Of a stretch of 64,000 bases of DNA, positions 5,585 to 27,108 are shown one piece after another. Under the pieces are notes generated by a model. It did no database searches and was not told the DNA's origin. It was given only the letters and a program-made list of their open reading frames with translations. The position numbers were made by a program, and so were the translations under genes. Where the stretch lies: UHGV virus genome UHGV-0084588; one strand, 5' to 3'. The first letter of the stretch is position 1. Each line of letters begins with the position of its first letter. The DNA comes from a virus.

Positions 5585-5597
5585 TAGATATTATCTT
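5585..5597 (+). promoter_or_regulatory. palindromic TAGATATTATCT motif (candidate promoter/operator)
   Basis: Same motif family as 13388, 13468 and 27097; 33 bp upstream of CDS 5630. Confidence 0.4.
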
Positions 5598-5629
5598 AAT
5601 GATGTTCCCTTAAAGGAGTATTAACGTTA

Positions 5630-5953
5630 ATGACGCGCGTGCTATTTGGTTTTCTGCTAGACTCTAGCCATTCAGTTCGCTATCGTCCTGAGGAGATTTT
5701 AGAAGCGATACAAGAACTGATTTTTCCGGGTGTTCACAATTTACCTGGAGATCGCTTGAAGGTGGCAGAAAGATATTTTGGTTCGGATGCGTGGTTTATG
5801 ATCAGTGCGTTGGGTCGTGACCACAATAGTCCTTTCTCTTATAAAAATGGAGTTGTGCAAACGTGGTCAAAATACACTTCAATCCAGCTACAGTTTATCA
5901 TAACTTCTGGACAGCGATGGAAAAAACATCCTACGCTTCCGCTTTGCGGATGA
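5630..5953 (+). CDS. hypothetical protein (107 aa)
   Basis: ATG preceded by conserved taaaggagtatta RBS context; stop overlaps next start (ATGA). Confidence 0.55.
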   Translation: MTRVLFGFLLDSSHSVRYRPEEILEAIQELIFPGVHNLPGDRLKVAERYFGSDAWFMISALGRDHNSPFSYKNGVVQTWSKYTSIQLQFIITSGQRWKKHPTLPLCG

Positions 5954-6489
5954 CAGTAAAAGAAAAACAGGCCGTTACTGTACAACTGATACACACAGCA
6001 TTAGAGGATATTTTTCACTCAATCCCCAGAATGCCGAATAGTCGGCTGCCGGATTTTTTAGACCAGTTCACGGATGCTTACACCCTAACGAATTTACTGG
6101 TTGCAGATGGTCGTGTAAAACCACCTAAAACAGTGAAGTGTCGTCAGGTTCTTGTCCATCGTTCAGCGTTTGGTGAAGTTGCAACAGAACAAGAGCGTGA
6201 GGTTTGTGTGCTACGTTCGAAAACATATCTCTTGGGATTGGCGTTTGATGACTGCTACGACGTTTTGTTGTGTGAGGTCGAATCTTTAGTTAGGGAAGGG
6301 TTTGAGGCTGTCGGGGAAGTTTTCAATCCTTATTTAACGGTTGAGATTGAACCACACCTTACGCCGAGAGGTCAAATTGCGATGATGGAGCTTCGTCTTG
6401 GAGAAGATATCCGATTTATCCACTACCGGAACTGTTTCCCGGATAAAAGATACGATCCGGATTACCTTACTCGATCACGTGACGTATAA
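5950..6489 (+). CDS. hypothetical protein (about 179 aa); start chosen at the ATGA overlap rather than ORF-track start 5863
   Basis: In-frame ATG at 5950 overlapping upstream stop; translational coupling pattern. Confidence 0.5.
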   Translation: MTVKEKQAVTVQLIHTALEDIFHSIPRMPNSRLPDFLDQFTDAYTLTNLLVADGRVKPPKTVKCRQVLVHRSAFGEVATEQEREVCVLRSKTYLLGLAFDDCYDVLLCEVESLVREGFEAVGEVFNPYLTVEIEPHLTPRGQIAMMELRLGEDIRFIHYRNCFPDKRYDPDYLTRSRDV

Positions 6490-6829
6490 GGCGTATCAAC
6501 GTATACTCGCGGACGAAAGGTTGTCATCGTATTCAGGGACAGATGCTGAACAGTTAAAATATGTCATACTGTCCCTACTGGAGTATCTCATTCCTAATTT
6601 TACGGAATCGGGAATGTGGGATGCTAACTGTGCTGCAACGATAGTACGGTCTTATCGACCTCGGTCTACAGAGGAAGATGTTCGTCTGATAACGTCTTAC
6701 GTCCGTGGTGCACTGTGTGAGGAAATGGGCATTCCTCCCAAAGGGTGGCGTTTTTATTATCGGATAGACGGACATTTTCTTCGTTTTATTCCAAAGAAGG
6801 TAACGGATATTTATGACGATCTTTATTGA
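6398..6829 (+). CDS. hypothetical protein; true start uncertain (possible GTG near 6479)
   Basis: ORF overlaps upstream gene by about 90 nt if started at 6398. Confidence 0.4.
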   Translation: MEKISDLSTTGTVSRIKDTIRITLLDHVTYKAYQRILADERLSSYSGTDAEQLKYVILSLLEYLIPNFTESGMWDANCAATIVRSYRPRSTEEDVRLITSYVRGALCEEMGIPPKGWRFYYRIDGHFLRFIPKKVTDIYDDLY

Positions 6830-7214
6830 GTTTCCGTGGACAACCGCAGAAATTCTGAAGGTAGTAAAACGAGCCGCCTATCTTCAATACCTGGATGTTT
6901 CGGATACAGTAGATTATTACGTAGAACAGCTCGTTAGGCTGGAGGTGTTACGTCGAAAGTATTGCATCGACGAACTTACAGTACGTGAGCTGTTTGCTGA
7001 TATTATTCGTCGGTATCCGATTGTAGAATCGGAGAGTCCGAACAGTTACTGTATTAATCAAGTTATTGAAGTTGAGCTTCTGAATTCAGTGTCGTTATGG
7101 GCGCGACTTGAAGAGGAAGTGGTCGTTTTACCGAATGAAGGTTTTCTTCTGTTCCACACAGGTTCTGGCGTTTGGCGAATGTTTACAACAGGAGGGGTAG
7201 CGTATGGGGCGTGA
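6813..7214 (+). CDS. hypothetical protein (133 aa)
   Basis: ATG overlapping upstream stop; part of a run of coupled small genes. Confidence 0.5.
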   Translation: MTIFIEFPWTTAEILKVVKRAAYLQYLDVSDTVDYYVEQLVRLEVLRRKYCIDELTVRELFADIIRRYPIVESESPNSYCINQVIEVELLNSVSLWARLEEEVVVLPNEGFLLFHTGSGVWRMFTTGGVAYGA

Positions 7215-7713
7215 GAGCTATTTTATCATACCTGACTACCAATTTATTTGCGGACCGCTGACGGAGTTTGATCCGAACGCGATATTGCGCGAAATCTGTA
7301 CCGATTTAAATACGGTACTGAATTATGTTTGGGAGTATGCGTTAACGGGGCACTTCCCGGAGTTAAATCGTTACGCGTTACAAGGAACGTTTGATTTTAT
7401 TGGACGGGAACTTAACAGCCATGGCGTTTTGTTGGAGGGTGAGCGTGCGCTGGAATATGTAAGAGCGACGCAGGAGGTAGCGAAGGCTTTTGTGACAGCG
7501 GTGTCGACGGAGCCGTACTGGTTTACACGATACGGCCAGTGGGTAGGTGCACGTTATTGTGCACAAAAGCCTGGCGCGGTAGAGTTCCTTGTAAGGTATG
7601 AACAGGTGAAGTATCCGGAATACGAGGAACCCGCTTTGTTACAACAAATGACCCCAAAATTGCAAACGCTTACAGAAATGTTGCTGGGTAATCTGGCTGG
7701 GAAGGTCTTATAA
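7204..7713 (+). CDS. hypothetical protein (169 aa)
   Basis: ATG with RBS ggagggg; stop overlaps next start (TAATG). Confidence 0.55.
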   Translation: MGRESYFIIPDYQFICGPLTEFDPNAILREICTDLNTVLNYVWEYALTGHFPELNRYALQGTFDFIGRELNSHGVLLEGERALEYVRATQEVAKAFVTAVSTEPYWFTRYGQWVGARYCAQKPGAVEFLVRYEQVKYPEYEEPALLQQMTPKLQTLTEMLLGNLAGKVL

Positions 7714-8219
7714 TGCAGTATGTTTATTACGTCGCACAAGAGGTACAAAGTTACGGCAGAACCCGTTTTTACGAAGCAGTACGGGACGTGTTAGTGGACG
7801 TTTTAGAAACGAATCGTTTAGACGTTTTCGAGCACGATATTCGGCGACTCTATGAGGATTTCGGTACCGCATACATCATTGCGGCGAAGTCCTATAATCC
7901 TGAGTTGTTAAAAGAACTGCTTACCGTCACTGCATACGACGAAAATGTTATTCCTGGCGAAACCGTAGAAAGTATCACGTTTCTTTCTACGATAGGTGAT
8001 GAAGATAGCCATCTTGCGGCAATTTGTCACGCGGCGGATATTCTACAGCGTGAGCTCCAGTCGCAGACAGGATTGGCTGCGTTAATTAATTCTATGTTTC
8101 CTGGTTCACTGACGCGTTGGATTGGGGAAACATTCAGCGATCTGGTGTTGGTCTGCTATGAAACTGTTTATGGAAATTTCGGAAGTGTATCTCCCGGAAC
8201 GCCTACATTCGCGGGTTGA
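7713..8219 (+). CDS. hypothetical protein (168 aa)
   Basis: ATG at TAATG junction. Confidence 0.55.
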   Translation: MQYVYYVAQEVQSYGRTRFYEAVRDVLVDVLETNRLDVFEHDIRRLYEDFGTAYIIAAKSYNPELLKELLTVTAYDENVIPGETVESITFLSTIGDEDSHLAAICHAADILQRELQSQTGLAALINSMFPGSLTRWIGETFSDLVLVCYETVYGNFGSVSPGTPTFAG

Positions 8220-8589
8220 GAATGCGGATATTGGTTCGGTAGCACCATATATGGCGTATTGGTTCCTGGCGAAGTACGCAGAGGAATCTGTACGTTCAGT
8301 GGTACGTCGTTTGGGTGAGGGTGAAACGTTTCTGACGTTCATCCCACCCAATCACCAATTTATTTTCACACAACTAGCACAACTGTTCTCAGTCGATGAA
8401 GTGCGTATATTCTCCCATTCTTTGTTGCAGTTTGAAATAGAAAAGGATGTGGACTATTTTCGTATCCGTAATCTGGTCGAATCACTCTGGCAACAGTCTG
8501 GGTTAACGCTGGAAGAAGGATCGAAGAAAACCAAAGTATCTTTGTTTATGAATGAGATTGGGAGTGGTTTTATTTGCATAGAGGTTTGA
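8158..8589 (+). CDS. hypothetical protein; start uncertain (8122 or 8158)
   Basis: ORF overlapping the 3' end of the upstream gene. Confidence 0.4.
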   Translation: MKLFMEISEVYLPERLHSRVENADIGSVAPYMAYWFLAKYAEESVRSVVRRLGEGETFLTFIPPNHQFIFTQLAQLFSVDEVRIFSHSLLQFEIEKDVDYFRIRNLVESLWQQSGLTLEEGSKKTKVSLFMNEIGSGFICIEV

Positions 8590-9204
8590 ATGTACAAAGT
8601 ACGGGGTGATCACTTCATCCGTCCGAACTTAGGGTTACTGGAATACGCCACAGATGGCGATTTCTATAAAGATAAGTTAGTAAGAACCCTAATGCGCTTT
8701 CGCTGTATGCGAGTGTCTTTTCCTACAACGATAGAGACGGCGGATGAAGCAACGCGGTATATCAATACCGCGATTAGCGAGTTATCGAAAGCGTGTAACT
8801 TTCCTGGCAATAAAAGGGAACTGAAAGAGTTAGACAGTTACCTGAAACGGTTAAACGATGAATACCGGCAGTGGAAATTTAACTCAATGATGGAAACCAG
8901 TTATACGGAAGACATGATTGAGGATATGCGTCCCCTTCTGGAAATCTATGAGTTATGTAAAATACAAGGCGGGTCTTCTTGGGATGTGTTGCGTGAACAC
9001 GCGATAGAAATTCTTCGCGATAATATTCTCCAGATTTACGAGAATGATTGTCTACCCGCTATCCAGCTCTTTCGTGCCGCACACAAATGTGGTATTGAGA
9101 GCCTGTGTTTAAACTTATCGTTACACGATGACCTAGGTACCGTTTCAGGCGTTTACGTTACGTTCCATCTGGACATCACAATGTTGAGGAGTGATAATGT
9201 TTGA
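8590..9204 (+). CDS. hypothetical protein (204 aa)
   Basis: ATG immediately after upstream stop (TGAATG). Confidence 0.55.
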   Translation: MYKVRGDHFIRPNLGLLEYATDGDFYKDKLVRTLMRFRCMRVSFPTTIETADEATRYINTAISELSKACNFPGNKRELKELDSYLKRLNDEYRQWKFNSMMETSYTEDMIEDMRPLLEIYELCKIQGGSSWDVLREHAIEILRDNILQIYENDCLPAIQLFRAAHKCGIESLCLNLSLHDDLGTVSGVYVTFHLDITMLRSDNV

Positions 9205-9610
9205 TTTTAGTAACATTGAACCAGGGTCTATCGTAAATATTGTTTACGATACTCCGTTAAAAGGTAATGAAACGCGAGTGCGTGTACTCGCGTCTAAAGT
9301 CGGCTATGAGTTTGCAAAAACCGCAGGCGAAGACCTGGCTGCTATCCAGAAGAACATTTATTCGTCATTAGTAGCACAACCTTCAAATGACCTCACTGCG
9401 TATAACTATATGCTGTTCCGCGACTCTACAGGTAAGGTAGGCGTTGCGGCAGATGCGTGGGTGCGCGAAGTAAGGGTAATTACCAGTTTGACAGCACGTT
9501 TTGTTGTACAGCTCGATAACAAGCAAGAGAAAGAAGACCTGGAAGCTGCGTTGGCAGCACGTGGGTTTAATGATGTGGAAATCGAGATCATTGAAAACGC
9601 TGCGGGTTAA
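9197..9610 (+). CDS. hypothetical protein (about 137 aa)
   Basis: ATG at 9197 with gaggag RBS; terminator follows. Confidence 0.55.
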   Translation: MFDFSNIEPGSIVNIVYDTPLKGNETRVRVLASKVGYEFAKTAGEDLAAIQKNIYSSLVAQPSNDLTAYNYMLFRDSTGKVGVAADAWVREVRVITSLTARFVVQLDNKQEKEDLEAALAARGFNDVEIEIIENAAG

Positions 9611-9616
9611 TCGAAA

Positions 9617-9659
9617 AATGTCCTCTCTTCGGAGAGGACATACTTCTTTCTTTTTTTTT
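9617..9659 (+). terminator. rho-independent terminator
   Basis: hairpin tgtcctctc-ttcg-gagaggaca followed by T-run. Confidence 0.7.
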
Positions 9660-9713
9660 CACGTTACCCACCCTCCTTATAGCCGAGTTAAACTGCCTTT
9701 TTAGAGGTCAGCC

Positions 9714-12026
9714 GTGGAATACATTTCTCCTTTTCGTTTAACGGTAGATGAATACCATCGTGATATTGATGTCAATGATGCCTACCGCGAACAGGTCGCG
9801 TTATACATTCATAACGTGACAGCACAAAAATACCCTTTAGAATTTTGTCGTCAGGAAGTCGATGCTCTTATTGCTCCTGGCGGTGAGTTAGCAACCGAAT
9901 CACCCGTGTGTAAGATGTGGGTGCGAAATCAGAAAACGGGCGATCGTGAGGAAAAATACACTACCGTCGATAAGCTATTTAAAACCGTCATTGACAAACA
10001 GATTATCTCCGCACCTTCGTTAACTTTTTATTTGCCCGAACACGTCAAACGTTCTAAGTTGTCTGAATTCACAGCAGCTAACGTAGCGAAACGTGCTGCG
10101 GTAAAAAAGGAAATGTTTGCAGCAGCAGCAGCGGGCAATGAAGTATTAAAGATCAACAAAAAGAACGAACAGAATGCGGTCAAGACGCTGAACAACGGTA
10201 TGTCTGGTGCATTCTCCTCTCCGTACACGATTATTTTCAACCAGTCTTCACACTCCGTACTGACGTCCACTTGCCGTACTGCAACTTCGTTCGGCAATGC
10301 TGGAAACGAACGTTTATTAGGAGGTAATCGTCATTACGATACCCCGTCACGCATTATTGATCATTTCTTATCTATCGGTACTTTAACCGATTGGAATAGC
10401 TTTAAGAAATGTATGGAGACGTATGAGCTTCATTACCCGTCGGTAGAAGAGGTGATGGAAGTTATTCACTATTCTGCTGATTTCTACTTTAAGAACGAAG
10501 AGGGGATGGAGTTCGTTGAGCATTACGTTAGTAATGTATCACCGTTGACGCGTGCCGCGTTTGTTTACATGGGTGATTTTTTCCACCTGGCTAAATACAA
10601 CGATAAGTTCATGCGCGACTTTATTGGTGCATTAATTACCCCTGAAGCGCGAGTTGATACTGAGGGCTGGACTGATACGGACTGGGTTGCTGCTGAGAAG
10701 ACCATCGATGGTGATATGCAGATTATTATCTCACAGTTCCGTACCGACGTAGTACCGATGGGTAAAGCGTTCAGTGACGTTAAGAAACTTGACGGTAATA
10801 AAAAACCCTTGCCGTGGGATCAGCAGGATGGCTATAAAGAACTAATTCGTTCCGCGCTGTTCTTACAGAAAACGATCGGTAAATACGCACTACTGATTCG
10901 TAATATTCTTACCACGAAAAACTTACCAATCAACATTGCTCGAATGCCGGATGTGGTTCGTCGTGTAGGCGTAGTATCTGATACTGACTCTACAATGATG
11001 ACTGCGCAATGGTGGGCAATCTGGTACACCGGTAAACATTACGGTGAGATAGCGACCCGCGTTTCCAATGCGATGATCTATATTGCGACACAGCACTTAC
11101 GGCATTTGATGGCGAGTATGTCAGCAAACATCGGCGTGGCGAAGGAGCGCTTGTTCCTGTATGCAATGAAGAACGAATTTAAGTTTGATTCGTTTGCATT
11201 GACTACCAAAGCAAAACATTACTTCTCACTGATTACCGGTCAGGAAGGCCAGCTGAAAAAAGATCCCGAGCTGGAAGTAAAAGGTGTGTCTTTACGCACA
11301 TCTAACATTCCTCCGATTATCATGAAGGAATTTAAGAACACTATCAAAGGGCTATGTGAAGTTGTTGCCCGTGGTGATCAGATCGAAATCATTCCGTTAC
11401 TGGAAAAGGTTGCCCAAATCGAACACACGATTATGGATTCTATTCGTTCTGGAAATCCAGGGTATTTGAAAACGACGAACATCAAGGAACGTAGCGCTTA
11501 TAACGAGAAGGATGAGAAGAACTACCATTACCATCGAATGTATAATGCTATCTTTGGTCCGAAGTTTGGTTATTTGGAAGAACCGCCGTACGATGCTGTG
11601 AAACTTCCGGTAACACTGGAAAACAAAACGAAGATTAAAGAATGGATTGACGGTATCGAAGATCCGATCATCAAGAACGGCGCATCGGCGTGGTTTGAGG
11701 AGACAAACTTCCGTAAATATAAAACATTGATTCTACCAGAACACTTGGTGGAAAACTACGGTATCCCTAAAGAGCTTATCGATATCGCAGATATCCGTCG
11801 TACTGCTTTCTCTACGGTTGAACCGTACTATCACATTCTCGAATGCTTAGGTGTGTTCATGATGGATAAAAACAGGATGAGGTTGTTGTCAGATTTCTAC
11901 GATAAAACCGAGGAGAAAGACGAACTGTATAAGGAATTAGCGGAAGTACAATACGTTAAGAAATCGGAGAGGGCAGGGGATGACGAAGAAGACGATGACG
12001 AAGAAGAGGTTTTTGACGACGAATGA
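9714..12026 (+). CDS. putative family-B DNA polymerase, C-terminal (polymerase) fragment, with acidic C-terminal tail
   Basis: Motif B-like KTLNNGMSGAF, motif C VVSDTDS, KKRY-like KAKHY; no exonuclease motifs or motif A in this ORF; GTG start with agagg RBS; B-to-C spacing is unusually long. Confidence 0.45.
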   Translation: MEYISPFRLTVDEYHRDIDVNDAYREQVALYIHNVTAQKYPLEFCRQEVDALIAPGGELATESPVCKMWVRNQKTGDREEKYTTVDKLFKTVIDKQIISAPSLTFYLPEHVKRSKLSEFTAANVAKRAAVKKEMFAAAAAGNEVLKINKKNEQNAVKTLNNGMSGAFSSPYTIIFNQSSHSVLTSTCRTATSFGNAGNERLLGGNRHYDTPSRIIDHFLSIGTLTDWNSFKKCMETYELHYPSVEEVMEVIHYSADFYFKNEEGMEFVEHYVSNVSPLTRAAFVYMGDFFHLAKYNDKFMRDFIGALITPEARVDTEGWTDTDWVAAEKTIDGDMQIIISQFRTDVVPMGKAFSDVKKLDGNKKPLPWDQQDGYKELIRSALFLQKTIGKYALLIRNILTTKNLPINIARMPDVVRRVGVVSDTDSTMMTAQWWAIWYTGKHYGEIATRVSNAMIYIATQHLRHLMASMSANIGVAKERLFLYAMKNEFKFDSFALTTKAKHYFSLITGQEGQLKKDPELEVKGVSLRTSNIPPIIMKEFKNTIKGLCEVVARGDQIEIIPLLEKVAQIEHTIMDSIRSGNPGYLKTTNIKERSAYNEKDEKNYHYHRMYNAIFGPKFGYLEEPPYDAVKLPVTLENKTKIKEWIDGIEDPIIKNGASAWFEETNFRKYKTLILPEHLVENYGIPKELIDIADIRRTAFSTVEPYYHILECLGVFMMDKNRMRLLSDFYDKTEEKDELYKELAEVQYVKKSERAGDDEEDDDEEEVFDDE

Positions 12027-12171
12027 GATTAATTCGATCCCGTGTAACGAGCGTTGGTTCCGACTGAAGCCCGTTGTCAATTTCGAAATCTATTACGATG
12101 ATCCGTTAAACGGGTGGTTAGCACACGTAACCGGACAGAATGTTTTTGTCATGGGATACGAATTACGGTAA
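11980..12171 (+). CDS. small hypothetical ORF (63 aa), doubtful
   Basis: Overlaps the acidic tail coding region of the upstream gene; no clear RBS. Confidence 0.2.
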   Translation: MTKKTMTKKRFLTTNEINSIPCNERWFRLKPVVNFEIYYDDPLNGWLAHVTGQNVFVMGYELR

Positions 12172-12258: not shown

Positions 12259-13320
12259 TTAATTTTCTAATGCTTGATATAATGGTAAAATTAACTCGTG
12301 TCGGTAATAGTTTCTAGCCGACCGTGTAAGTTTTTCCAATATCTTCGCATCTTCGAATCTGGCTATACGCACCATTAAATTGGATTTGTATTTGCTCATG
12401 CTCGAGTTGTCGAACTGTAAGCAGAACAACGCCCAATACCAGTTCACGATGTTTCGATGCCAACTACCTTGAATGGTTGAGCCTGGGTCTTTAAAAAGGA
12501 TACGGTCTACCGCAGTGGTAGGGTGTGTCGGATCATCAAAGAACTGTGGAATGTGTGCCATGACCACACCAGGTAAAGGTTTACCTGCACGGAGTGCTTT
12601 ACAAACTTGCGTTGCGTGTTTAATTGAAAGTTCACGCAAAGGCGGTGTAGGAACAACACGAAGTGGCGTTTCGGGTTCGACTTCTTTACCTGTTGCGACA
12701 GCGCGATGAATATTTAAAAAAGCGATATTCATGTAGCTAGGTAGCATACGGTAAATGATGTGTCGTTGCGCGTAAACTACACGGTTAATCGGTTCGGGTT
12801 GTGTTCTGTAATATTGTTCTGCAAGAACATATTGCCAAAGTAACGCAACCAGATTGATTTCGATAATACTGATGCCTCGGGGTTTGCCGTTCCCGAGACC
12901 CCAGTTAAGATTCGTGTACTCGTGATAAAGATAAACTGCAGGTGTGTAGTCACGAAAAGACAGTTCAGGATCAATAGGACGTGCGACGAGTGAAATAATC
13001 TCATCTTGCCCTTCGATAAAGATCCCGTTGAAAACTTGACCATACTCCCCCACAGAAGTTAGGTGTAGCGCATTACCGATATCGGAAAGCTTGCGTCGAC
13101 ATGCCCACTCGATCTCTTCGTAGCTGGGTTCACCCGCATATCCGATAGCCGCTAAGATTTTGAGTACCAGATGGCCTGAAACAACACGGGTTTGAATGGA
13201 CTCTAAATAGTTGCGAATGCGCTGATTATTATTTTTTACGGCACTGACCAATTGTATAGCGGAAGGGTCTTCGAATTTACCCTTTATGGCTGCTTGGTTT
13301 AACTCGGCTTGACTGAACAT
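12259..13320 (-). CDS. hypothetical protein (353 aa)
   Basis: Minus-strand ORF with aaggag RBS; divergent from the 13529 gene. Confidence 0.6.
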   Translation of the reverse strand: MFSQAELNQAAIKGKFEDPSAIQLVSAVKNNNQRIRNYLESIQTRVVSGHLVLKILAAIGYAGEPSYEEIEWACRRKLSDIGNALHLTSVGEYGQVFNGIFIEGQDEIISLVARPIDPELSFRDYTPAVYLYHEYTNLNWGLGNGKPRGISIIEINLVALLWQYVLAEQYYRTQPEPINRVVYAQRHIIYRMLPSYMNIAFLNIHRAVATGKEVEPETPLRVVPTPPLRELSIKHATQVCKALRAGKPLPGVVMAHIPQFFDDPTHPTTAVDRILFKDPGSTIQGSWHRNIVNWYWALFCLQFDNSSMSKYKSNLMVRIARFEDAKILEKLTRSARNYYRHELILPLYQALEN

Positions 13321-13374
13321 GACTTACTCCTTGGGGTTACACATAGGAAACGGTCACAGTCTAACTCACATTGA

Positions 13375-13405
13375 AAAATATCTTAGCTAGATATTATCTA
13401 TGTGA
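13375..13405 (+). repeat. 31-bp direct repeat copy 1 containing palindromic TAGATATTATCTA
   Basis: aaaatatcttagctagatattatctatgtga, near-identical to 13455-13485. Confidence 0.8.
13388..13400. promoter_or_regulatory. candidate promoter/operator TAGATATTATCTA (perfect 6-bp inverted repeat with 1-bp spacer)
   Basis: Palindrome TAGATA-T-TATCTA in divergent intergenic region. Confidence 0.45.
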
Positions 13406-13454
13406 TGGTTCGGTAGTTAATCATTTTAAGCTATGTGTGTTTTACGTGTATTCT

Positions 13455-13485
13455 AAAATATCTTAGCTAGATATTATCTACGTGA
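13455..13485 (+). repeat. 31-bp direct repeat copy 2 containing palindromic TAGATATTATCTA
   Basis: aaaatatcttagctagatattatctacgtga, one mismatch to copy 1; 44 bp upstream of ATG 13529. Confidence 0.8.
13468..13480. promoter_or_regulatory. candidate promoter/operator TAGATATTATCTA, second copy
   Basis: Identical palindrome about 48 bp upstream of the codon-optimised gene 13529. Confidence 0.45.
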
Positions 13486-13528
13486 ACCAACACTACAATT
13501 GTATTAAACCTTATAAGGATTAAGTAAA

Positions 13529-15376
13529 ATGGCTAAAGAGTTTATTGACAATCAAAACGACGTTGTGACTGGTGCTGCTGGTTCTGCTGCAGATCCAATT
13601 CCGTCTTTCGGTGGCGCGGGAGCTGCTACTGTGGATAATACCAATGCGGCCAACGCTTTTGGTGGGATGTCTAAAAACATCTCCACTTTCGATAAAGCTT
13701 TCGGATACATGTCTTTCGTGTCCACTGCTTCTCAGTTCACTAGCCTGATTGAGAAGATGGCGGAGAAGAACACATACCTGCGTAACTTCCGTTGGGGTGT
13801 CATTGACGGCATCAACTCTGAAATGGGTTCTGCTGCATACGTGGCTGGTCCGTCCGGCGATAACCATAACGAATGGCTCTACGGCATCCTGTTCTTTGAA
13901 CATGGCCAGTCCATCCGTTTCTACGAAATCAACGGTAAAGAAAACTACTACACCCTGGCGCAGCTGTTCAGTCAAGAAGGTGTGATGAACAACATCACTA
14001 ACCAGATTGCAACTCAACACAATCTGCCGAGCGTACAGTTCATGGTAATGAACTGCGTACCGGAACTGGGTAAAACCATGAACGAAGAATGGGCTAACCA
14101 GCTCATGGGCCAGATTGCACTGGGTATCTTCGGTCGTCATTCTGGCTACCTGGGCTACCTGAAAATGACCCGTTCTGATCGCTTCACCGCGCAAGTTAGC
14201 GTAGTTGAAGAAGGTTCTGTAACTGACGTTAACGGTTCCGCACAGCGTGCTGACCTGATGGTTGTGGTTGACCATACTCGTACCGGCAACAACGATAATA
14301 ACCCGACGCTGTTCTCTTCTGAACGCCTCCAGAATTATCCGAGCGTTGCAGGTGTTGGTTACATCAACCTCCGCCATAAAGGTAAACCTCAGACTCTGAC
14401 CAACGGTACTCAGGACCTGCGTCAGCTGGAAGCCGAAGTGGTTGTTTCCCTGATGGATTCTCAGTCCTCTGGGGCAATGGCACCTATCGAGCGTCAGCTG
14501 ATTGAACTGGCCGCGTTCGCACAAATCGCCACTATCGGTGGCTGGCGTGAACGTTTCATGCAGTCGCTGAACAAAACCGATCGCCGCTTCTCCCGCGTTC
14601 TGGAGTATGTAGAATGGGGCAGCGAAAAACCTGACCTGAGCAAAATCGACGGTAACCGTGAAGTTATCGAGAAATGCCTGGACACCTTCGCTAACCCGAC
14701 TGCAGCTCTGGTGGTGAACCATCGTGCAGGTAACGGTATCGGTGGTCTGTCTACTCTCCTGAGCGAAATCGGGATGGGTAACACCAACGCACTGTACACC
14801 CTGTTCAACATCCTGGATAACATGGCCAGCAACGGTGCGACTAAGTTCAGCACTCGCTTCAAAGCACTGCTGGGCAATGTCACCAACTTCGAGTGCAAAC
14901 ACGTTGTTATTGCCGGTTGCCCGACCATCTCTGGCCAGTATTTCAGCAACAGCCAGAAACGTAGCTTCCAGGATATGGACTTGGTTTCCGCTCTGACTAA
15001 AGTGGGTGACAACCAACGCGATGCGATCGACTACATCAGTGCACAGTCCTACTCTCACCGCTATCTGAATGCGCGTGACCAGCGTCTGTACCTGCTGAAA
15101 ATGGCTGCGTCCATGTTCGGTAGCAAACAGCCGCAGGTAACGGGTGAAGCGTCTGACCTGGCGATCAATCCGTTGTTTGGTAAGGCACTGGTGGAATACA
15201 TCACCGAAAACTGCAACTTCCAGGTGAACGGTGTTACCGCAGCGAACAGCCTCACTCACTCTGTGTTTGTTAACACGGGTAATGAGAACTTCGCTCTGTC
15301 TGGTAGCGGTCCTAACGCATTTGGTAGCGATTTCGGTATGTCCTTCGCTGCAACTGACTGGCGTCCGACTTTCTAA
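13529..15376 (+). CDS. abundant 615-aa protein; candidate phage nuclear-shell (chimallin-like) protein, alternatively a major capsid protein
   Basis: Strong bias to E. coli-type optimal codons; tandem promoter repeats upstream; strong terminator downstream; lies directly upstream of the RNAP beta-prime N-terminal gene, which from memory matches the phiKZ gp54-gp55 arrangement. Confidence 0.45.
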   Translation: MAKEFIDNQNDVVTGAAGSAADPIPSFGGAGAATVDNTNAANAFGGMSKNISTFDKAFGYMSFVSTASQFTSLIEKMAEKNTYLRNFRWGVIDGINSEMGSAAYVAGPSGDNHNEWLYGILFFEHGQSIRFYEINGKENYYTLAQLFSQEGVMNNITNQIATQHNLPSVQFMVMNCVPELGKTMNEEWANQLMGQIALGIFGRHSGYLGYLKMTRSDRFTAQVSVVEEGSVTDVNGSAQRADLMVVVDHTRTGNNDNNPTLFSSERLQNYPSVAGVGYINLRHKGKPQTLTNGTQDLRQLEAEVVVSLMDSQSSGAMAPIERQLIELAAFAQIATIGGWRERFMQSLNKTDRRFSRVLEYVEWGSEKPDLSKIDGNREVIEKCLDTFANPTAALVVNHRAGNGIGGLSTLLSEIGMGNTNALYTLFNILDNMASNGATKFSTRFKALLGNVTNFECKHVVIAGCPTISGQYFSNSQKRSFQDMDLVSALTKVGDNQRDAIDYISAQSYSHRYLNARDQRLYLLKMAASMFGSKQPQVTGEASDLAINPLFGKALVEYITENCNFQVNGVTAANSLTHSVFVNTGNENFALSGSGPNAFGSDFGMSFAATDWRPTF

Positions 15377-15460: not shown

Positions 15461-16828
15461 GTGGAACATAAACTAGAATATTACGGGATTTCAGGGCGAC
15501 TAATTAGTCACGATAAAATGCTACGTGACTGTATACAAGAAGCGGAGGAAAAAGGCTACAAACCCCCGATTATTATCAATGACGTTGCTGCAACGATGGA
15601 TACCATCGAAGCGTCAGAGATGATTAACCAAATACTTCAAAACCGAATCGTTGATGAAACACTCAACTCGGCTCCTATTTGCAGTCTGACCTGCGAATCA
15701 CCTATTACCCATCGTTATAATCTTGGGTTACGTTGCCCACATTGTGGTCATGTTGTTTCTGAACATCGGATTACGTCCGAAGTTTGGCTACGTGCACCCG
15801 ATGAGATAGGTAACTTTATCAATCCACGTTTTTGGTCTCTCTTTAATGCTTTCTTTGGCTCTAAGCTGAAAAAATTTAATCGTAACAAAGTGACGGTAGA
15901 GCGTGGTTCTGATTTGCTGCTATGGCTAATCGATCCGTACTACCATCCAGAAAAGGACGAAGGAACACGTGCTCGTGTGGTGAAAAGAATCCTCAGCGAA
16001 CATGGTTTCGAACGGGGAATTCGAAACTTTATCGACCACCATCGAACCGTCTTTAATATCCTTACGTCCCCGGAAGCTTGGAAGGAGATTTATCCACCGA
16101 CGAAAAACAACCGTTATGAGAGTGAACGCGTACGCTTAGAATGGCGTGAGTTCTTTCAGGAACAATCGTTCTCATTCTTTCCAAGACACCTTCCGATTAT
16201 TTCATCGAAACTGATCGTTACAGAGGAGCGCCGACAAGGTATCTTTATCGATCCCGTTTACACCAGTGCCATCGATGCAGTAAAAAATGTGGCGTTGTTG
16301 TACACGAATGCACGTCGTATCGAACCACGATTTATTATTCGTCGCGCGATCAAAGCGAATCGACAACTTGCGTATTTCTATATTGACCATCGTCAGGAAG
16401 TGATGGAAGGTAAACCTGGGTTCTATCGGGCAAAACTCGGGTCAACGCACGTACCGTGGGGCGGACGTGTGACTATCTCTCCTATCTCTGAACCTCACGA
16501 TGCGTTGAAAGTTATTGCGCCTTGGCGTTGGTTAGTTCCGTTGGCGAGTGTTCACATTGAGAACAAGTTAGGTCGACGTGACTACACACCTCGACAGTGT
16601 GAACGAATTATTGCATTCGCGGCAATGCAGTATGTACCGTTGGTACATGAAATTATTAATGAGCTGATTAAAGAATCCCCCGGCGGATTCGGTTTAATGT
16701 TGGAAGTTCTACGTAACCCAACATTGGTTCAGCTTTCTATTCAGACATTGTTTATCTCGGCGGTACTGACAGATGTAACACAATGTTCTCTGCGTATTTC
16801 TGATCGCGTCATCAAAGCACCTAATGCT
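15461..16828 (+). CDS. RNA polymerase beta-prime-like subunit, N-terminal fragment, exon 1
   Basis: Zn-ribbon C-x4-C...C-x2-CG; GKPGFYRAKLG...GGRVTISP matches [41 protein letters not shown] matches NRAPTLHRLGIQAF; ends ...KAPNA where bacterial beta-prime has YNA|DFDGD; GTG start. Confidence 0.75.
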
Positions 16829-17178
16829 AAATACTGGCCCACTAGACGGGAAACCTCTAGTGCGTATCCCTCGAATTGCTGGGAACTCCTAAAGCTTACG
16901 ATCCCGACAGGGTGGCGAAAGTCAGAAACAATTCGTAAGATAGCCTATGCTAACCAATAATGCTAAGGGTTGAGATAATGGATAACCAGCAGCGATGAAA
17001 ATCGTTCAACGACTATCGAAAGGGTAAAACCGAGTAGAGTAGCTGCTTAGTTTAGCGGCGAAGTGGGGGAGACCTACGGGTAGCAATACCTACGGTTATG
17101 ATATAGTCTGTGCCCATGTGAAAGCATGGGAGGGTGTCATTGCACACCTGCTCCAAAAGGAATGGGGTGGACAAACAG
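16829..17178 (+). ncRNA. group I self-splicing intron (350 nt, no internal ORF) interrupting the NADFDGD motif
   Basis: Exon 1 ends in U and intron ends in G; joining gives ...APNA-DFDGDQ...; core-like elements (consensus from memory): P aattgctgggaa (16874-16885), Q aaccagcagc (16984-16993), R gttcaacgacta (17004-17015), S gatatagtc (about 17100-17108). Confidence 0.75.
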
Positions 17179-21109: not shown

Positions 21110-21167
21110 TTTTACAGATCGTTTTGTTAGTTTGAGCACTCCGAAAATGTAAAAATAGGATAAGTAA

Positions 21168-21812: not shown

Positions 21813-21831
21813 ATAACGTAAAACTATAACA

Positions 21832-21862
21832 TAGCCCCAGGATATCCTGGGGCTCTTTATCG
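21832..21862 (+). terminator. terminator-like hairpin
   Basis: agccccagg-atat-cctggggct followed by a short T-rich stretch. Confidence 0.5.
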
Positions 21863-21894
21863 TGTATGTGTGTAGAATACAGTCGAAGTTATCT

Positions 21895-21911
21895 GAGATA
21901 GATTTTATCTT
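21895..21911 (+). promoter_or_regulatory. candidate promoter/operator, TAGAT-TTT-ATCT palindromic variant
   Basis: gagatagattttatctt about 35 bp upstream of ATG 21946. Confidence 0.3.
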
Positions 21912-21945
21912 AGTGCACGACTATGCTATTCCTGGAGATTTTAAA

Positions 21946-23574
21946 ATGCGTATTGAAAAGAATCGTGACCGTTTAGTGATAAAATACGGTGAAAAGGAGG
22001 TCGCGTTTAATGGTTTCCGAAACGGACGTAAAGACGTGAATGTGCCAGACGTACGCGATAGTTTCGGACAGATCGTAACGCATGATAAAATCATGTTCAT
22101 GGAAATCGATCGTTATTGGTCAACTTTAACGCCCGAAGAGAAAAGCGAACTGTTTTCAGTTTACGAAGAATTAGAGTTGTTAGCTAATGAACCCCCAGAA
22201 GTTATTCGTGAACACGTTCCCACACTCGTCGCGAGAATTGCTAAATTTCATCACGCAGATAGATTCCGCCAGCTTTATCCACACGGCTCGGTGTGGATTC
22301 CTCAAAACGTCCACGAAACGTACGAAGAGATGTCGTCGAATTATCCAAAAGAGATGACGTATATTGTACAAGATTATTACGAACTGGTGATTTTGTCTTT
22401 GATGACAAAACCGTTTATTCCAGTATTCTTGATTTTGGACGCTTTTCCTGCAACACGTGCTTCTGTTGAGTCGAAGCGCAAAAGTGTTTATAACCTGACC
22501 TACTGCATGGAGCTATTGTCGGATACCGAGATTGCCACGCTGCCTGCCATTACAAAGTTGCGTGAGTTTTTAGTGTCGGTGATTTCGAAAGTTCAAGACG
22601 GGGGCAGTAAAGGACCCAATACTGCAAATCTTACCGTCCTGGCATCTATCTGCGGCTACGGCACGGATATGGTAGAGGAATACATCGTAGCGTTCGCTGT
22701 TATCCGTTTAATTGCGATGAAGTTAATCGGTGCCGAGCTACCACCGGGTACGATGGTTGAAAACAACATCGTGGCGGGAATGTATTTCAATATTCGACAA
22801 GAAATTGAAACTGGCTTCGCGGGAAAAATTTCCGGTCAAAACGTGATGCTAAAAGCGAATCCTGAGAAAATCATGTTCAACGGCGAGAAGGGGAAAACTT
22901 CGTCGATTGACTTGGTTCAGGCTCGGACTAAAGCACCGATGAAAGAATTCGTTCGTACCCAAGAATTCTTTAATGACTACCGTCGTGCGGTGCGTGCTTT
23001 GAATCTCGATATTGCTCCCGCAGATGTGAAAGTGCTGATAGATTCTATCAACATTAATCATCAGTATCCGTTCTACGAACTCTACGAATGGTTGGTGGCG
23101 GCAGTGATGCACCGATTTGCAGATCGTCGTACATACAAGGAAATCGACTCGGAAGCATTTAAGAACGCGATGGGTATATCCCAAGCCGTTTACATCTATT
23201 ACGGAATGCCTGAGATTGCGCAGCTGTTAAGTTGTGAGATGATCCGGGCACCGCTAAATGGCGGGTATCCTATCGAACCGATCGATAATGAGATTAAAAT
23301 AAAAACGGATAGATATTATCCACAGGCATACCGTAAGCATCGTAATACTTACGAACAGTCAACGTTGAAGGATTCTCTCAGCTTGTTGGTTCGTGAGCAT
23401 ATTGCACCGTTCAACTTCAATCTCAGGGCAACACCGGAAGCAGCCAGAATGTTACGGTGTGGGACAGTGATGTTGGACTATTCGCCTCATCCGCGACTTC
23501 AGAACATGTTAGCAGAATTTCTGTTAATTCAAAACAGAAAGAAATGTGAAGAAGTGGCATGGTTTAATCAATAA
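21946..23574 (+). CDS. hypothetical protein (about 542 aa)
   Basis: ATG at 21946 with ggag RBS, chosen over ORF-track start 21862. Confidence 0.5.
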   Translation: MRIEKNRDRLVIKYGEKEVAFNGFRNGRKDVNVPDVRDSFGQIVTHDKIMFMEIDRYWSTLTPEEKSELFSVYEELELLANEPPEVIREHVPTLVARIAKFHHADRFRQLYPHGSVWIPQNVHETYEEMSSNYPKEMTYIVQDYYELVILSLMTKPFIPVFLILDAFPATRASVESKRKSVYNLTYCMELLSDTEIATLPAITKLREFLVSVISKVQDGGSKGPNTANLTVLASICGYGTDMVEEYIVAFAVIRLIAMKLIGAELPPGTMVENNIVAGMYFNIRQEIETGFAGKISGQNVMLKANPEKIMFNGEKGKTSSIDLVQARTKAPMKEFVRTQEFFNDYRRAVRALNLDIAPADVKVLIDSININHQYPFYELYEWLVAAVMHRFADRRTYKEIDSEAFKNAMGISQAVYIYYGMPEIAQLLSCEMIRAPLNGGYPIEPIDNEIKIKTDRYYPQAYRKHRNTYEQSTLKDSLSLLVREHIAPFNFNLRATPEAARMLRCGTVMLDYSPHPRLQNMLAEFLLIQNRKKCEEVAWFNQ

Positions 23575-23604
23575 TTTTCGGCTTGACCTAAAGGAGTATT
23601 TACA

Positions 23605-25311
23605 ATGGCAATGAAACTTTTGAAACTGCAAATGTATCCGGTGTACGAAATCCCAGAGCAGATTCGTCGTCGTATCGGGTTCTTTGAATCGCAGCACGCT
23701 TTGGATGAGTTAGTGGATGTGGTCGCAGAGCACGGTGATAAAGCAACAGGTTCTCGGGCTTATCAAGAAGCCCTGGGTCAGATTGTGGGCTTCGATAATA
23801 CTCCAACCGGTATTGAACGCCCATTCATTAACGTGAGCGATAATGAATCACAGCCAATCCACTTTGCGTATAACTCTCGCGATACGGGTGTGTATAACTT
23901 CGTGGCGATTATTGTTTCGAACTCGTTAAATGACACACGGACTCAAGAAACGCGTTATGTTGTTTCTGGGTATACATCTCAGGCAGAGCGGTCTATGTTT
24001 AATCACCTGCCGGATGACATGGTTCTGTATATCAACGAAATATACGGATTACAATGTACGTATATCACCGATGCGTTTGGTGGGCGTCGTATCAACCCGG
24101 ATTCTTTCCGTCTGATAGACAACTATGTGTTGTCCAAGACACTAACTGCGGACAGTTATGTGGAACACACCATCGACGTTATTTCTACCGCGAAAGCGGC
24201 TGATATGGTACGTAAAGTGGTGAAGGCAGGCGAACAGATTGAGCTGGATAATAACACGGTTATCTCCGCTAATTGCCAGCGTGCGCCACAGTTGATGTCT
24301 AGTCAATTAACCCGACCGGAATCTTTCGTGACGGCAATCTCCAATTCCTTTATTAACACCATGGGGATTGAAACGGAGCTGAGCGCAGTAGATAGTTTCT
24401 TCGCAGGAGATCATTCTCTTGGGGTAGAATCTGAACTTAGTCAGATCGGCGTGATGCGTAACTTCAATAGTTACGAATTGGTGAAGGCGTTTAGAACAGC
24501 CATATCCAACGCCACGTCAGATATGACTAGTGGTTGGAACGTTGCGAACCGTGCAGCATTTAAACTGTGTGACTTGCGTAATGCGGTGGTTAATCCCGAA
24601 GATGTGGATGCTGCAATTGCGCACTCGCTGGCTGTCGCGGCCCGTCGTGGTTTTGGTGAAATTGAACGCACCGATGATTGGGTAGGGCGTAATAACTATT
24701 CTACTCAGGGTTCATTAGTGGCGTTTGATTTAGCCATGTTACTGGGGCCTGTGGTCACCCGTAATCTTATCGGTGAAGTGACTTTCTTCTACGATAACCG
24801 TATGGCGGATATTGCAACACCTCCTCTGCTGCAAGTGTCAAAACACAACGTTGGGGCATTAACTGAAGACGGATTACCGGATGTGTTAGCACGTCGCTTC
24901 TTAAGTGACTTACAAGGCGTATTCTTGCAAGTGACTAAACATAACCGTATTCGTTGTAAGATGACTGTAACGTGTATCGTTGGGGTGGTTTCGCGTATTG
25001 AAATCGAAATCGATGGCGAGCTGCCTGAGTATTATACACATGCGTCGTTCATGAAAGCACGTCTGCATTGCGGTACAACAACTGACCTTCAGTACACGAA
25101 CCAGTTAGCTGCAGAAACAGCACAGCTGATGAATAAAGTGGAAGAAGGGTACCAAGAATTCAACCGTGGTCAGAACCGTTCGAATATCCTGTCGAATATT
25201 CCAACTGCCCCTGTGTCTGCGCCTACAAGCCTGGGTAGTTTCGGTAGCTTTGGCGGCAGCGATATGTCAACGCCTGTGCCAGTGTCTGGCTTTGGTGCAT
25301 TCGGCGAGTAA
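23605..25311 (+). CDS. hypothetical protein (568 aa) with C-terminal FG-repeat tail
   Basis: Conserved RBS context ctaaaggagtattta; C-terminus SLGSFGSFGGSDMSTPVPVSGFGAFGE. Confidence 0.6.
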   Translation: MAMKLLKLQMYPVYEIPEQIRRRIGFFESQHALDELVDVVAEHGDKATGSRAYQEALGQIVGFDNTPTGIERPFINVSDNESQPIHFAYNSRDTGVYNFVAIIVSNSLNDTRTQETRYVVSGYTSQAERSMFNHLPDDMVLYINEIYGLQCTYITDAFGGRRINPDSFRLIDNYVLSKTLTADSYVEHTIDVISTAKAADMVRKVVKAGEQIELDNNTVISANCQRAPQLMSSQLTRPESFVTAISNSFINTMGIETELSAVDSFFAGDHSLGVESELSQIGVMRNFNSYELVKAFRTAISNATSDMTSGWNVANRAAFKLCDLRNAVVNPEDVDAAIAHSLAVAARRGFGEIERTDDWVGRNNYSTQGSLVAFDLAMLLGPVVTRNLIGEVTFFYDNRMADIATPPLLQVSKHNVGALTEDGLPDVLARRFLSDLQGVFLQVTKHNRIRCKMTVTCIVGVVSRIEIEIDGELPEYYTHASFMKARLHCGTTTDLQYTNQLAAETAQLMNKVEEGYQEFNRGQNRSNILSNIPTAPVSAPTSLGSFGSFGGSDMSTPVPVSGFGAFGE

Positions 25312-25333
25312 AAGATTAATCAAGGACTCTTAA

Positions 25334-26713
25334 ATGAAAATTATTGAATTCTATAAATCGTTTCTTAAATCACAAGGATTCGATTTTGAAAACGATTTAC
25401 TCACTCGTGACGGTGGTGAACCGGCAGAGTTTACGTACAACAAAGTGAAGCGCCGTTTGGCGCTTCCTACCCCAGCGATGATTAAGCGCGGTATGGAAGA
25501 CGATGATGGGCGTGAATGTCAGGCTTTTCATCCGCTGTGCGAATCGGTGCTGGCAGGCGAATCAGGGACAATTCGTTTTCTGAAGAAATCCATTAATGCG
25601 AACCTGTTCATTCGTTCCTTTGCATTAATCGACGCGATTCTGGAAACGGGGGCAAGTGGCAAAGCAGTACGTTCAGCTTCCTACAAGAAGTTCTTAACAG
25701 AACAGATTTGCGAAGGGATGAAAGATCCGACGTTCGACGAACGTTTGGTGAAATCCTGGGAAGCGGTGAAAGCGTTCGTCTATGGGCAATTGGAAAAAGA
25801 TAAAAAGCACAAGATCACCCAGCTTTTTATTGCATCTGATTTAGTTATCGACGGCGTGAAGTTTAACCGTGTAGCTAATTATCGGAATATGTTCGAAGAA
25901 GAATCGTTAGATGGTACTGCAATGTACTTCTCTGCGAAGCTTCAACGTAAACAAGACAAAATCATTATCCATCGTTTATTGACCACTGTGTTCGGTTGGT
26001 ATCCGAGCGTAACGGGGTCTAATGATTCGCGTCCGTATTTCGGTTGCTTAGCACGTGGTTGGGCGCAGTACGTTGTGAATTATAACAACGTCGTTAAGGG
26101 ATTGCGCGACCACACATCTTTACGTCCGTTGGAAGATGAATGGATTTCTCAGCTGGACAATATGGATATTTACGATAACGTCATTCAGACTTTACCGTAT
26201 AACACCGGCCCACGTTCTGACAGCCCTGAACGTGATACCACGGCGCATGATTTCCGTATCGATCGTGCGCAGGCTCCGCAGCAGATTCCACAAAAACGTG
26301 CGTCGGATGCAGATAAAGCGGATAAGTCCGATCCGATGGAATTCTTCCGTGCTCGTGAACGTAACATGGCCACGCATAGTCCTTATGGGAATTTGACGCC
26401 AGCGATGCAACGTTACGCCGAGCAGCACGGAACAACTAACCCTGCCAACGGTATGGTAAGTCGAATTTCTGTTGTGGATGCGTTTGGTGGAGAGCGCAAG
26501 GTGTCACCTTTCGGTGGTCAGAGTAACTTCGGTGTAGGGAATACCGGAGGTTCTTTGGCAAGTACCTTTGGCGGAGGGAATAATTCTTTCAGCGGGAATG
26601 TAGGAGGGACTAGCGCGTTTAGCACGAGTTCAGCATTTGCAACGAATAGCAGTTTTGGCGGGCAGCCGCAAAGCAGCTTCGGTGGATTTGCAACTTCGCC
26701 ATTTACGCGCTAA
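25334..26713 (+). CDS. hypothetical protein (459 aa) with about 110-aa C-terminal FG/GFG-repeat low-complexity tail
   Basis: Tail: AFGG, PFGG, NFGV, TFGGG, SFSG, SSFGG, SFGGF separated by Ser/Thr/Asn/Gly spacers. Confidence 0.6.
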   Translation: MKIIEFYKSFLKSQGFDFENDLLTRDGGEPAEFTYNKVKRRLALPTPAMIKRGMEDDDGRECQAFHPLCESVLAGESGTIRFLKKSINANLFIRSFALIDAILETGASGKAVRSASYKKFLTEQICEGMKDPTFDERLVKSWEAVKAFVYGQLEKDKKHKITQLFIASDLVIDGVKFNRVANYRNMFEEESLDGTAMYFSAKLQRKQDKIIIHRLLTTVFGWYPSVTGSNDSRPYFGCLARGWAQYVVNYNNVVKGLRDHTSLRPLEDEWISQLDNMDIYDNVIQTLPYNTGPRSDSPERDTTAHDFRIDRAQAPQQIPQKRASDADKADKSDPMEFFRARERNMATHSPYGNLTPAMQRYAEQHGTTNPANGMVSRISVVDAFGGERKVSPFGGQSNFGVGNTGGSLASTFGGGNNSFSGNVGGTSAFSTSSAFATNSSFGGQPQSSFGGFATSPFTR

Positions 26714-26719
26714 GTGAAG

Positions 26720-26752
26720 TAAAAAGAAGGGACCGAGTCCCTTCTTTTTTTA
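26720..26752. terminator. bidirectional terminator between convergent genes
   Basis: hairpin aagaagggac-cgag-tcccttctt flanked by A-run and T-run. Confidence 0.65.
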
Positions 26753-27073
26753 ATCATTACCGATGGTGCTAATAATCTCACTAACCGTTCCGACGTCGGG
26801 TACGATTAGTTGCGTGATTTCAGGGGTGAAATTCATGGGGTCTTCTAGCCCGTTTAATAGCATCATTGGATAGATAATGATATCGGCGTAACCTTTGAGT
26901 TTACAGTAGGCGTAGAAATTGTGGACCTCAGGCCAACTGTAGCGTGGGTCAACATTTTCTATTTTAGTTTTCGGGTGTTTACGCAGATAGTCTGTGTAAT
27001 CGTGCATCACTTTCCACGTCGTGGTGTAAGGCGCAGGTATGAATTCTTCTAGGGTAATAAAATTGTCTAACAT
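26750..27073 (-). CDS. hypothetical protein (107 aa), lone minus-strand gene
   Basis: Minus-strand ORF with aggaa RBS. Confidence 0.5.
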   Translation of the reverse strand: MLDNFITLEEFIPAPYTTTWKVMHDYTDYLRKHPKTKIENVDPRYSWPEVHNFYAYCKLKGYADIIIYPMMLLNGLEDPMNFTPEITQLIVPDVGTVSEIISTIGND

Positions 27074-27096
27074 AATCGTTCCTAAAATAAGTGAGA

Positions 27097-27108
27097 TAGA
27101 TATTATCC
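27097..27108 (+). promoter_or_regulatory. TAGATATTATCC motif (candidate promoter/operator)
   Basis: Same family as 5585, 13388 and 13468; about 30 bp upstream of ATG 27137. Confidence 0.4.

Follow-up and report, generated by a model that had tools for sequence, protein, structure and literature searches.

A short palindrome that recurs upstream of operons in a phiKZ-related jumbo phage is probably the core of an early promoter

UHGV-0084588 is the genome of a phiKZ-related jumbo phage, and the 64,000 nucleotides (nt) of it analyzed here (the window) are collinear with the genomes of Salmonella phage SPN3US and Erwinia phage Asesino. A 13-nt palindrome, TAGATATTATCTA, recurs upstream of genes in this window, twice in front of the gene for chimallin, the shell protein of the phage nucleus. 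We conclude that the palindrome is probably the core of an early promoter of the phiKZ type, which would be read by the virion RNA polymerase (vRNAP) and start at an invariant G, position 17 counted from the first base of the 13-mer (G17). The element is of an ordinary, already known kind. For a so far uncharacterised jumbo phage of the SPN3US-like group, the analysis yields a transcription map of the left 64 kb, with nine predicted early starts that include tandem promoters for the nuclear-shell gene and a promoter for each non-virion RNA polymerase (nvRNAP) operon. The single observation that may be new is that the promoters fall into two linked sub-types, only one of which has a hairpin at the 5' terminus of the predicted transcript.

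The palindrome and the conserved element around it

Exact matches to TAGATATTATCTA were found in the window only at 13388-13400 and 13468-13480, and none were found in 100 dinucleotide-preserving shuffles of the window. With up to two mismatches allowed there were 13 matches on the two strands, compared to 1.04 expected, and no shuffle reached 13; the matches at 5585 (one mismatch) and 27097 (two mismatches) were among them. The exact copies lie in a direct repeat, 13375-13405 and 13455-13485, in which 30 of 31 positions are equal. The distance from the first base of the 13-mer to the start codon is 45 nt at 5585, 141 nt at 13388, 61 nt at 13468, and 40 nt at 27097. An earlier note on this DNA had reported two exact copies within a 31-bp direct repeat, near-identical copies at 5585 and 27097, and distances of 30-130 bp to a start codon, all of which was essentially right (the measured range is 40-141 nt), and motif enrichment, which it had named as a check for the full genome, was above chance in the window. 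The observation of the palindrome is confirmed as real and non-random. Further copies, beyond those in the earlier note, were present at 21899 and 23310 and at two sites of a '27-mer' kind, 54343 and 62597. The most repeated 11-mer of the window was TAGATATTATC, with five copies.

A position matrix spanning -16 to +20 around the start of the 13-mer was built from window sites. The sites used for training scored 37-47 bits, and the scan added two more plus-strand sites, 23310 (16.0 bits) and a weaker copy at 3193 (19.6 bits). There were nine plus-strand sites of at least 16 bits in the window, compared to a shuffle maximum of 12.3 bits:

3177..3212, plus strand: weaker hybrid copy TAGATGTTACCTG, G3/C10; predicted transcription start (+1) G3209; 48-nt leader to the 3257 gene; 19.6 bits
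5569..5604, plus strand: copy TAGATATTATCTT; predicted +1 G5601; 29-nt leader to the 5630 gene; 37.6 bits
13372..13407, plus strand: distal chimallin promoter copy, core TAGATATTATCTA at 13388-13400; predicted +1 G13404; 125-nt leader; 46.3 bits
13452..13487, plus strand: proximal chimallin promoter copy, core at 13468-13480; predicted +1 G13484; 45-nt leader; 47.5 bits
21883..21918, plus strand: copy TAGATTTTATCTT; predicted +1 G21915; 31-nt leader to the PHIKZ068 homolog; 40.9 bits
23294..23329, plus strand: weaker copy TAGATATTATCCA, inside the open reading frame (ORF) of the gp68 homolog; predicted +1 G23326; 16.0 bits
27081..27116, plus strand: copy TAGATATTATCCT; predicted +1 G27113; 24-nt leader to the operon of gp71-73 and gp74 homologs at 27137-31473; 38.5 bits
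54327..54362, plus strand: '27-mer' sub-type copy TATATATTACCTA; predicted +1 G54359; 54-nt leader to the 54413 gene; 41.9 bits
62581..62616, plus strand: second '27-mer' sub-type copy; predicted +1 G62613; 50-nt leader to a small ORF at 62663; 45.4 bits

All nine copies are on the plus strand, and eight of them lie between ORFs, 40-141 nt upstream of a start codon. The ninth, at 23294-23329, is a candidate internal promoter, with its predicted +1 279 nt upstream of the 23605 gene. The copies are co-oriented with and upstream of presumed early operons, including those with nvRNAP genes; the 5630 gene, for example, is the head of an operon that reaches the DNA polymerase gene at 9714. The copies at 5585, 13388/13468, and 27097 are located in divergent intergenic regions directly after a minus-strand gene, where a rightward operon must have a promoter of its own. 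At about 41.1 kb and 48.9 kb, where two divergent regions open onto virion structural genes, the matrix scan of the window found no copy. An identical 12-nt block with a ribosome-binding site, TAAAGGAGTATT, precedes three start codons (blocks at 5611, 23589, and 27122), and for two of these start codons a palindromic-type promoter lies directly upstream.

The palindrome sits in the middle of a motif that spans about 36 nt, is asymmetric, and is made up of an A-tract, AGA, TAGATATTATCTA, and nGTG. At the perfect palindromes the reverse strand scored at most 1.3 bits, compared to 46-47 bits on the forward strand, and the conserved element is therefore asymmetric. When the nine window sites were pooled with the 22 sites of SPN3US described below, six positions were invariant in all 31 sites: the A at -13 (13 nt upstream of the 13-mer), A4, T5, T7, A9, and G17. 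The invariant A opens an A-rich tract that extends from -13 to -9, and the AGA directly upstream of the 13-mer is well conserved and has no symmetric partner downstream. A highly conserved AT-rich core of about 10 nt, a feature of phiKZ-type early promoters as defined in PMC7598289, recurs in one register across the 9 window and 22 SPN3US sites.

Conservation of position and the early-promoter reading

In the complete SPN3US genome, the window matrix identified 22 plus-strand sites of 18.5-43.9 bits, compared to a shuffle maximum of 15.1; the only minus-strand matches were reverse reads of two of these sites. For 21 of the 22, a non-structural gene lay 40-250 nt downstream. Seven plus-strand sites were found in the first 50 kb of Asesino, all of them positional orthologs of window sites and all but one located before non-structural genes. 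Every one of the nine window sites had a positional ortholog in SPN3US, and seven also had one in the stretch of Asesino covered:

3193: SPN3US 4430; Asesino 5030
5585: SPN3US 7393; Asesino 8013
13388 / 13468: SPN3US 15617 / 15710; Asesino 16340 / 16432
21899: SPN3US 23813; Asesino 24559; also the phiKZ site before PHIKZ068
23310: SPN3US 25229; Asesino 25975
27097: SPN3US 28972; Asesino 29798
54343: SPN3US 56297; in Asesino outside the first 50 kb
62597: SPN3US 65416; in Asesino outside the first 50 kb

The tandem chimallin promoters were kept in SPN3US, Asesino, and two closer relatives, and at the ORF-internal site, 23310, the codons GAT AGA TAT TAT were identical in SPN3US and Asesino, including the rare AGA. 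This conservation of position across genera is an observation in its own right, as are the anatomy of the motif, its orientation, and its gene context. In phiKZ, which was also scanned with the window matrix, TGAAAAAAATTTGAGATTTATATTACTAAATTGAAT was located directly before PHIKZ054, the chimallin gene (24.4 bits), and a near-identical site directly before PHIKZ068 (20.5 bits); shuffles reached 19.9 at most. From phiKZ to the enterobacterial jumbo phages, the position of the promoters before chimallin and gp68 has been kept. A scan of IMG/VR with the pattern AGNTAGATATTATCT (14 specified bases) was too unspecific; among the matches listed, most were unrelated contigs.

Early (vRNAP) promoters of phiKZ, 28-32 AT-rich elements, have been mapped by primer extension, differential RNA sequencing (dRNA-seq), and ONT-cappable-seq. 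Wicke et al. (PMC8244752) reported the phiKZ early-promoter motif at the primary transcription start site (TSS) of PHIKZ054. The window elements resemble these promoters in the A-tract, the (T)TTnAGA, and the AT-rich TATATTAC-type core in the same register, and also in orientation, distance to genes, and the orthologous positions before PHIKZ054 and PHIKZ068. The phiKZ cores observed here read TyTATATTACTAA (T3/C10/T11), whereas TAGATATTATCTA of the window is a derived, palindromic G3/T10/C11 form. The tandem chimallin promoters echo the two TSSs of PHIKZ054, although the early promoter in phiKZ is paired with a middle-type promoter and both tandem copies in the window are early-type.

A second experimentally mapped system gave the predicted start. 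The early consensus of phage AR9, AAATATATATTAT-(6N)-G(+1) (PMC5312081), superimposes on ATATTAT-CTAnGT-G of the window, and the +1 was therefore placed at the invariant G17. The two have in common the ATATTAT core, a conserved G that follows after 6 nt and has been mapped as the start in AR9, and a location before early operons in a phage with two multisubunit RNA polymerases. AR9 differs in its uracil-containing genome and Bacillus host, in a promoter whose upstream part reads AAATAT instead of AGA-TAG, and in that no sub-type split has been described for it. The placement of the +1 at G17 is also supported because the hairpins of the sister sub-type described below, which show compensatory changes, begin exactly at G17.

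According to a review by Sokolova et al. (PMC7598289), every jumbo phage that encodes RNA polymerases has an AT-rich motif near -10 before its early operons, and the nvRNAP of phiKZ and AR9 is the product of early genes transcribed by vRNAP. By homology with these phages, TAGATATTATCTA would be the core, roughly from -16 to -4, of an early promoter, and the multisubunit vRNAP, injected with the DNA, would recognize the element and start at G17, without help from host RNA polymerase or newly made proteins. The vRNAP would read rightward into the genes needed first, namely those for chimallin (served by two tandem copies) together with the gp55 homolog, those for the homologs of gp68 and gp71-74, and the replication operon. 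Starts 16 nt past the first base of the 13-mer would be at 5601, 13404, 13484, 21915, and 27113, with leaders of 24-45 nt apart from the 125 nt of the distal chimallin copy. The earlier note's suggestion of a promoter element was supported, in that the palindrome forms the core of a motif that is strand-specific, is located before operons, and keeps its position in SPN3US, Asesino, and phiKZ. Literature searches by the letters of the core and for an SPN3US promoter motif turned up nothing relevant; Lavysh and coworkers reportedly published a prediction of the early motif for each jumbo phage in 2016.

Linked sub-types, dyad symmetry, and alternative readings

The repeat finder showed that the copies of TTTCAGATATATATTACCTAGGTGAGA at 54337 and 62591 align in register with the palindromic copies and have a common skeleton with them. 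Because the shared stretch is exactly 27 nt, TTTCAGATATATATTACCTAGGTGAGA is almost certainly the "27-mer class" from which the earlier note had set the palindrome apart. The 27-mer sub-type has the same invariant positions, predicted +1, and register as the palindromic one, and differs in T3/C10 and in leaders of about 50-55 nt. Positions 3 and 10 were linked across the 31 sites, with orthologs counted (20 G/T, 8 T/C, 3 hybrids; Fisher p = 4.7e-5); the counts in SPN3US alone were 14/6/1/1, and the sub-type was kept at orthologous sites. Exact copies of the 27-mer were present in SPN3US, a 244,840-nt contig of IMG/VR, and several further contigs of jumbo phages. The supposed distinctness of the two classes was only partly upheld: they belong to one family in one register, but within it form linked sub-types, G3/T10 and T3/C10, that differ in the 5' hairpin.

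In the C10 sub-type, 18 of 24 unique sequences had a predicted transcript hairpin starting at nucleotides 1-3, compared to 2.4 ± 1.5 in tail shuffles, none of which (0/300) reached 18. There was no enrichment in the G3/T10 sub-type, with 5' hairpins in 3 of 30 sequences vs 1.55 expected. The stems vary between orthologs but stay paired (GAGATTAC/GTAATCTC, GATAGA/TCTATC, GAGCGTTA/TAACGCTT). Predicted hairpins were located at 54359-54378 and 62613-62631 in the window, at 56313, 65432, 94258, 114005, 165706, and 223296 in SPN3US (L016-L020), and in IMG/VR loci L003-L014. The predicted transcript of the 54327..54362 copy has the 5'-terminal hairpin GAGATTAC...GTAATCTC at -8.2 kcal/mol, and that of the hybrid copy at 3177..3212 also opens with a hairpin (-5.0 kcal/mol). 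Among early leaders of phiKZ, a 5' hairpin was found before PHIKZ054 and none in four others. The hairpin may stabilise early mRNAs. Directly upstream of the 27-mer promoter at 54337 is a terminator, a 14-pair hairpin with a T-run at 54276-54320, and the pair makes up a unit boundary.

Several points weigh against an early promoter read by vRNAP. Neither for this phage nor for other SPN3US-like phages were transcript 5'-end or timing data found, and even for the model phages direct recognition lacks proof. The core holds a hexamer that resembles the -10 element of sigma-70 promoters (TATATT/GATATT), the predicted TSS of which coincides with G17, so sequence alone leaves use by the host polymerase possible. 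In addition, a plain model of strength-tuning does not explain the G3-T10 linkage, which creates the dyad and is kept at orthologous sites. It is conceivable, though on balance doubtful, that SPN3US-like jumbo phages have split an ancestral phiKZ-type early promoter into two sub-classes that are differently expressed or regulated, with the dyad of the palindromic type possibly read by a second, dimeric factor. The C10 type is near-invariant over 27 nt across genera and is located before small accessory genes with a leader of about 52 nt and a 5'-terminal hairpin, and the G3/T10 type has a short leader without hairpin and is located before the chimallin, nvRNAP, and replication operons. If such a split were real, there would be a two-tier early program, immediate-early and delayed-early, within vRNAP transcription.

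One rival reading is that the G3/T10 element is an early promoter and an operator as well, its AGATA-T-TATCT dyad being bound by a dimeric phage regulator, such as an early helix-turn-helix (HTH) protein, that would set the timing of the chimallin, nvRNAP, and replication operons, or silence them, separately from the 27-mer sub-type. This is unlikely. The linkage of G3 and T10 does raise the symmetry from 4/6 to 6/6 pairs, the palindromic sub-type is kept at orthologous promoters in three genera with a gene set different from that of the other sub-type and without the 5' hairpin of the latter, and an HTH DNA-binding protein of SPN3US (gp165) is annotated directly downstream of a 27-mer-type promoter. 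However, only 4 of the 31 pooled sites are perfect palindromes; pairs were complementary at positions 1-13, the outer pair, in 15/31 sites, at 3-11 in 20/31, and at 4-10 in 21/31. The dyad was not kept by compensatory change among sites or orthologs: five sites have G in place of A6, and position 8 shows the matching change in only one of them. The flanks are asymmetrically conserved, and no site was found in the opposite orientation.

Comparison of the chimallin copies in related phages led to the same view. A 96-97% identical relative of the phage is present in IMG/VR (IMGVR_UViG_3300029126_000001, 225 kb; loci L003, L009, L015), and its distal chimallin copy is AAGATATTATCTA. In a 71%-identical relative the chimallin copies are AAGATATTATCTA and, at the proximal position, TATATGTTATCTA; in both relatives the arms are broken and the core is kept. 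The chimallin copies of SPN3US and Asesino are TTGATATTATCTA, CAGATATTATCTC, TTGATATTATCAT, and CAGATATTATTAC, with TTGATATTATCTA/CAT at the position corresponding to the palindrome. Four differences from the 96% relative were found in the 211-nt intergenic region; a cluster of three of them falls in the distal copy (13380-13400, compared with 3496-3516 of L015) and turns it identical to the proximal copy. The clustering of these substitutions toward the proximal copy therefore points to a short gene conversion in this lineage as the apparent origin of the second perfect palindrome. The sequences indicate that the dyad is incidental, a by-product of the G3/T10 core variant, and the dimeric regulator site that had been proposed from its symmetry is not supported. 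Folding of the palindrome itself as a hairpin was rejected, as a 1-nt spacer cannot make a loop. The 27-mer sub-type has an 8-bp palindrome of its own, ACCTAGGT, at positions 9-16 directly upstream of the predicted start (54351-54358 and 62605-62612); it is probably incidental too, because it is degraded to ACTTAGGT in three SPN3US copies. The lesson for method is that the full conserved footprint should be examined before a short palindrome is called an operator.

Another possibility, for which we see little room, is that the AT-rich core is the -10 element of a host sigma-70 promoter, to be read by the bacterial polymerase as infection begins. The hexamer at positions 3-8 fits TATAAT at 4-5 of 6 positions, including the critical A2 and T6, would place a start near G17, and lies about 7-12 nt upstream of the predicted start; furthermore, independence from the host polymerase has been demonstrated for phiKZ and AR9, but not for SPN3US-like phages. 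Yet the sites have no conserved -35 or TG extension (extended -10), and a sigma-70 scan found no plus-strand promoter at 13250-13600 or 54150-54450. The conserved flanks (A at -13, AGA, nGTG) are foreign to sigma-70, the 27-mer is identical across phages of Salmonella and Erwinia hosts, the motif matches the sites before PHIKZ054 and PHIKZ068 by both sequence and position, and phiKZ early promoters work without host RNA polymerase. Chance, or a recent local duplication without function, has next to no likelihood: the perfect copies are only 80 nt apart and were recently homogenised by the three clustered substitutions, but no shuffle contained an exact match, copies are spread over 60 kb, and the explanation is refuted because orthologous positions are kept across genera, in phages about 50% identical in protein.

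Genes served by the promoters and other features of the window

The genes that bear on the early-promoter reading are:

13529..15376, plus strand: chimallin, the phage-nucleus shell protein; 51% identity to SPN3US ACQ60_gp244; identified by structure search and synteny with PHIKZ054
15461..16960, plus strand: homolog of the nvRNAP subunit phiKZ gp55; PDB 7ogp_A, E = 1.1e-32; same operon as chimallin
21946-23574, plus strand: PHIKZ068 (gp68) homolog; PDB 7ogp_B, E = 1.9e-10
27137-29374: homolog of phiKZ gp71-73, an nvRNAP subunit in PDB 7OGP
29374-31473: homolog of phiKZ gp74, an nvRNAP subunit in PDB 7OGP
37435-38736: vRNAP beta'M homolog; 74% identity to the 431-aa SPN3US vRNAP beta'M subunit

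The beta'M homolog, the SPN3US counterpart of which was assigned previously (PMC5105663), indicates that the phage codes for a virion-packaged multisubunit RNA polymerase besides the nvRNAP; the other vRNAP genes are outside the window.

The 13529 protein is about 51-53% identical to its counterparts in SPN3US and Asesino, and SPN3US ACQ60_gp244 was named a diverged chimallin by Laughlin et al. (PMC9365700). By sequence only, it was not identified in searches against PDB or Pfam or against phiKZ gp54 by BLASTP. Structure prediction and Foldseek settled what the sequence searches could not: the AlphaFold (AF2) model had a predicted local distance difference test score (pLDDT) of 61.5 and a predicted template modelling score (pTM) of 0.62, and its top 9 PDB matches were all chimallin/PhuN (E 1e-16 to 6e-13), with the next match at E = 0.1. 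The 13529 protein was therefore identified as chimallin. A precomputed PF25677 label on some homologs was not reproduced with the local copy of Pfam and was not used. A 100% identical chimallin is recorded in an ENA assembly (P0001); in the GenBank phage collection searched, the phage itself was otherwise absent.

Several other features were observed in the window. A candidate late (nvRNAP) promoter is the block CCACATAGGAA.ACGGTCACAGTC at 13336-13362, which is conserved in four phages; on the minus strand it carries TATG, the core of phiKZ late promoters, about 20-25 nt upstream of the gene for a PHIKZ052-like head protein on that strand (12259-13320). Tandem paralogous genes at 51639-52910 and 52993-54258, which include stretches of 76-95% DNA identity, match the pair of internal head proteins of SPN3US. 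Two different convergent gene junctions (39266-39309 and 44626-44669) each have a hairpin terminator, TTACCCTACTCC-nnnn-GGGAGTAGGGTAA with a T-run behind it, in nearly identical form. The 11-mer AACGTGCTGCG has four plus-strand copies, at 10090, 36649, 41950, and 63252.

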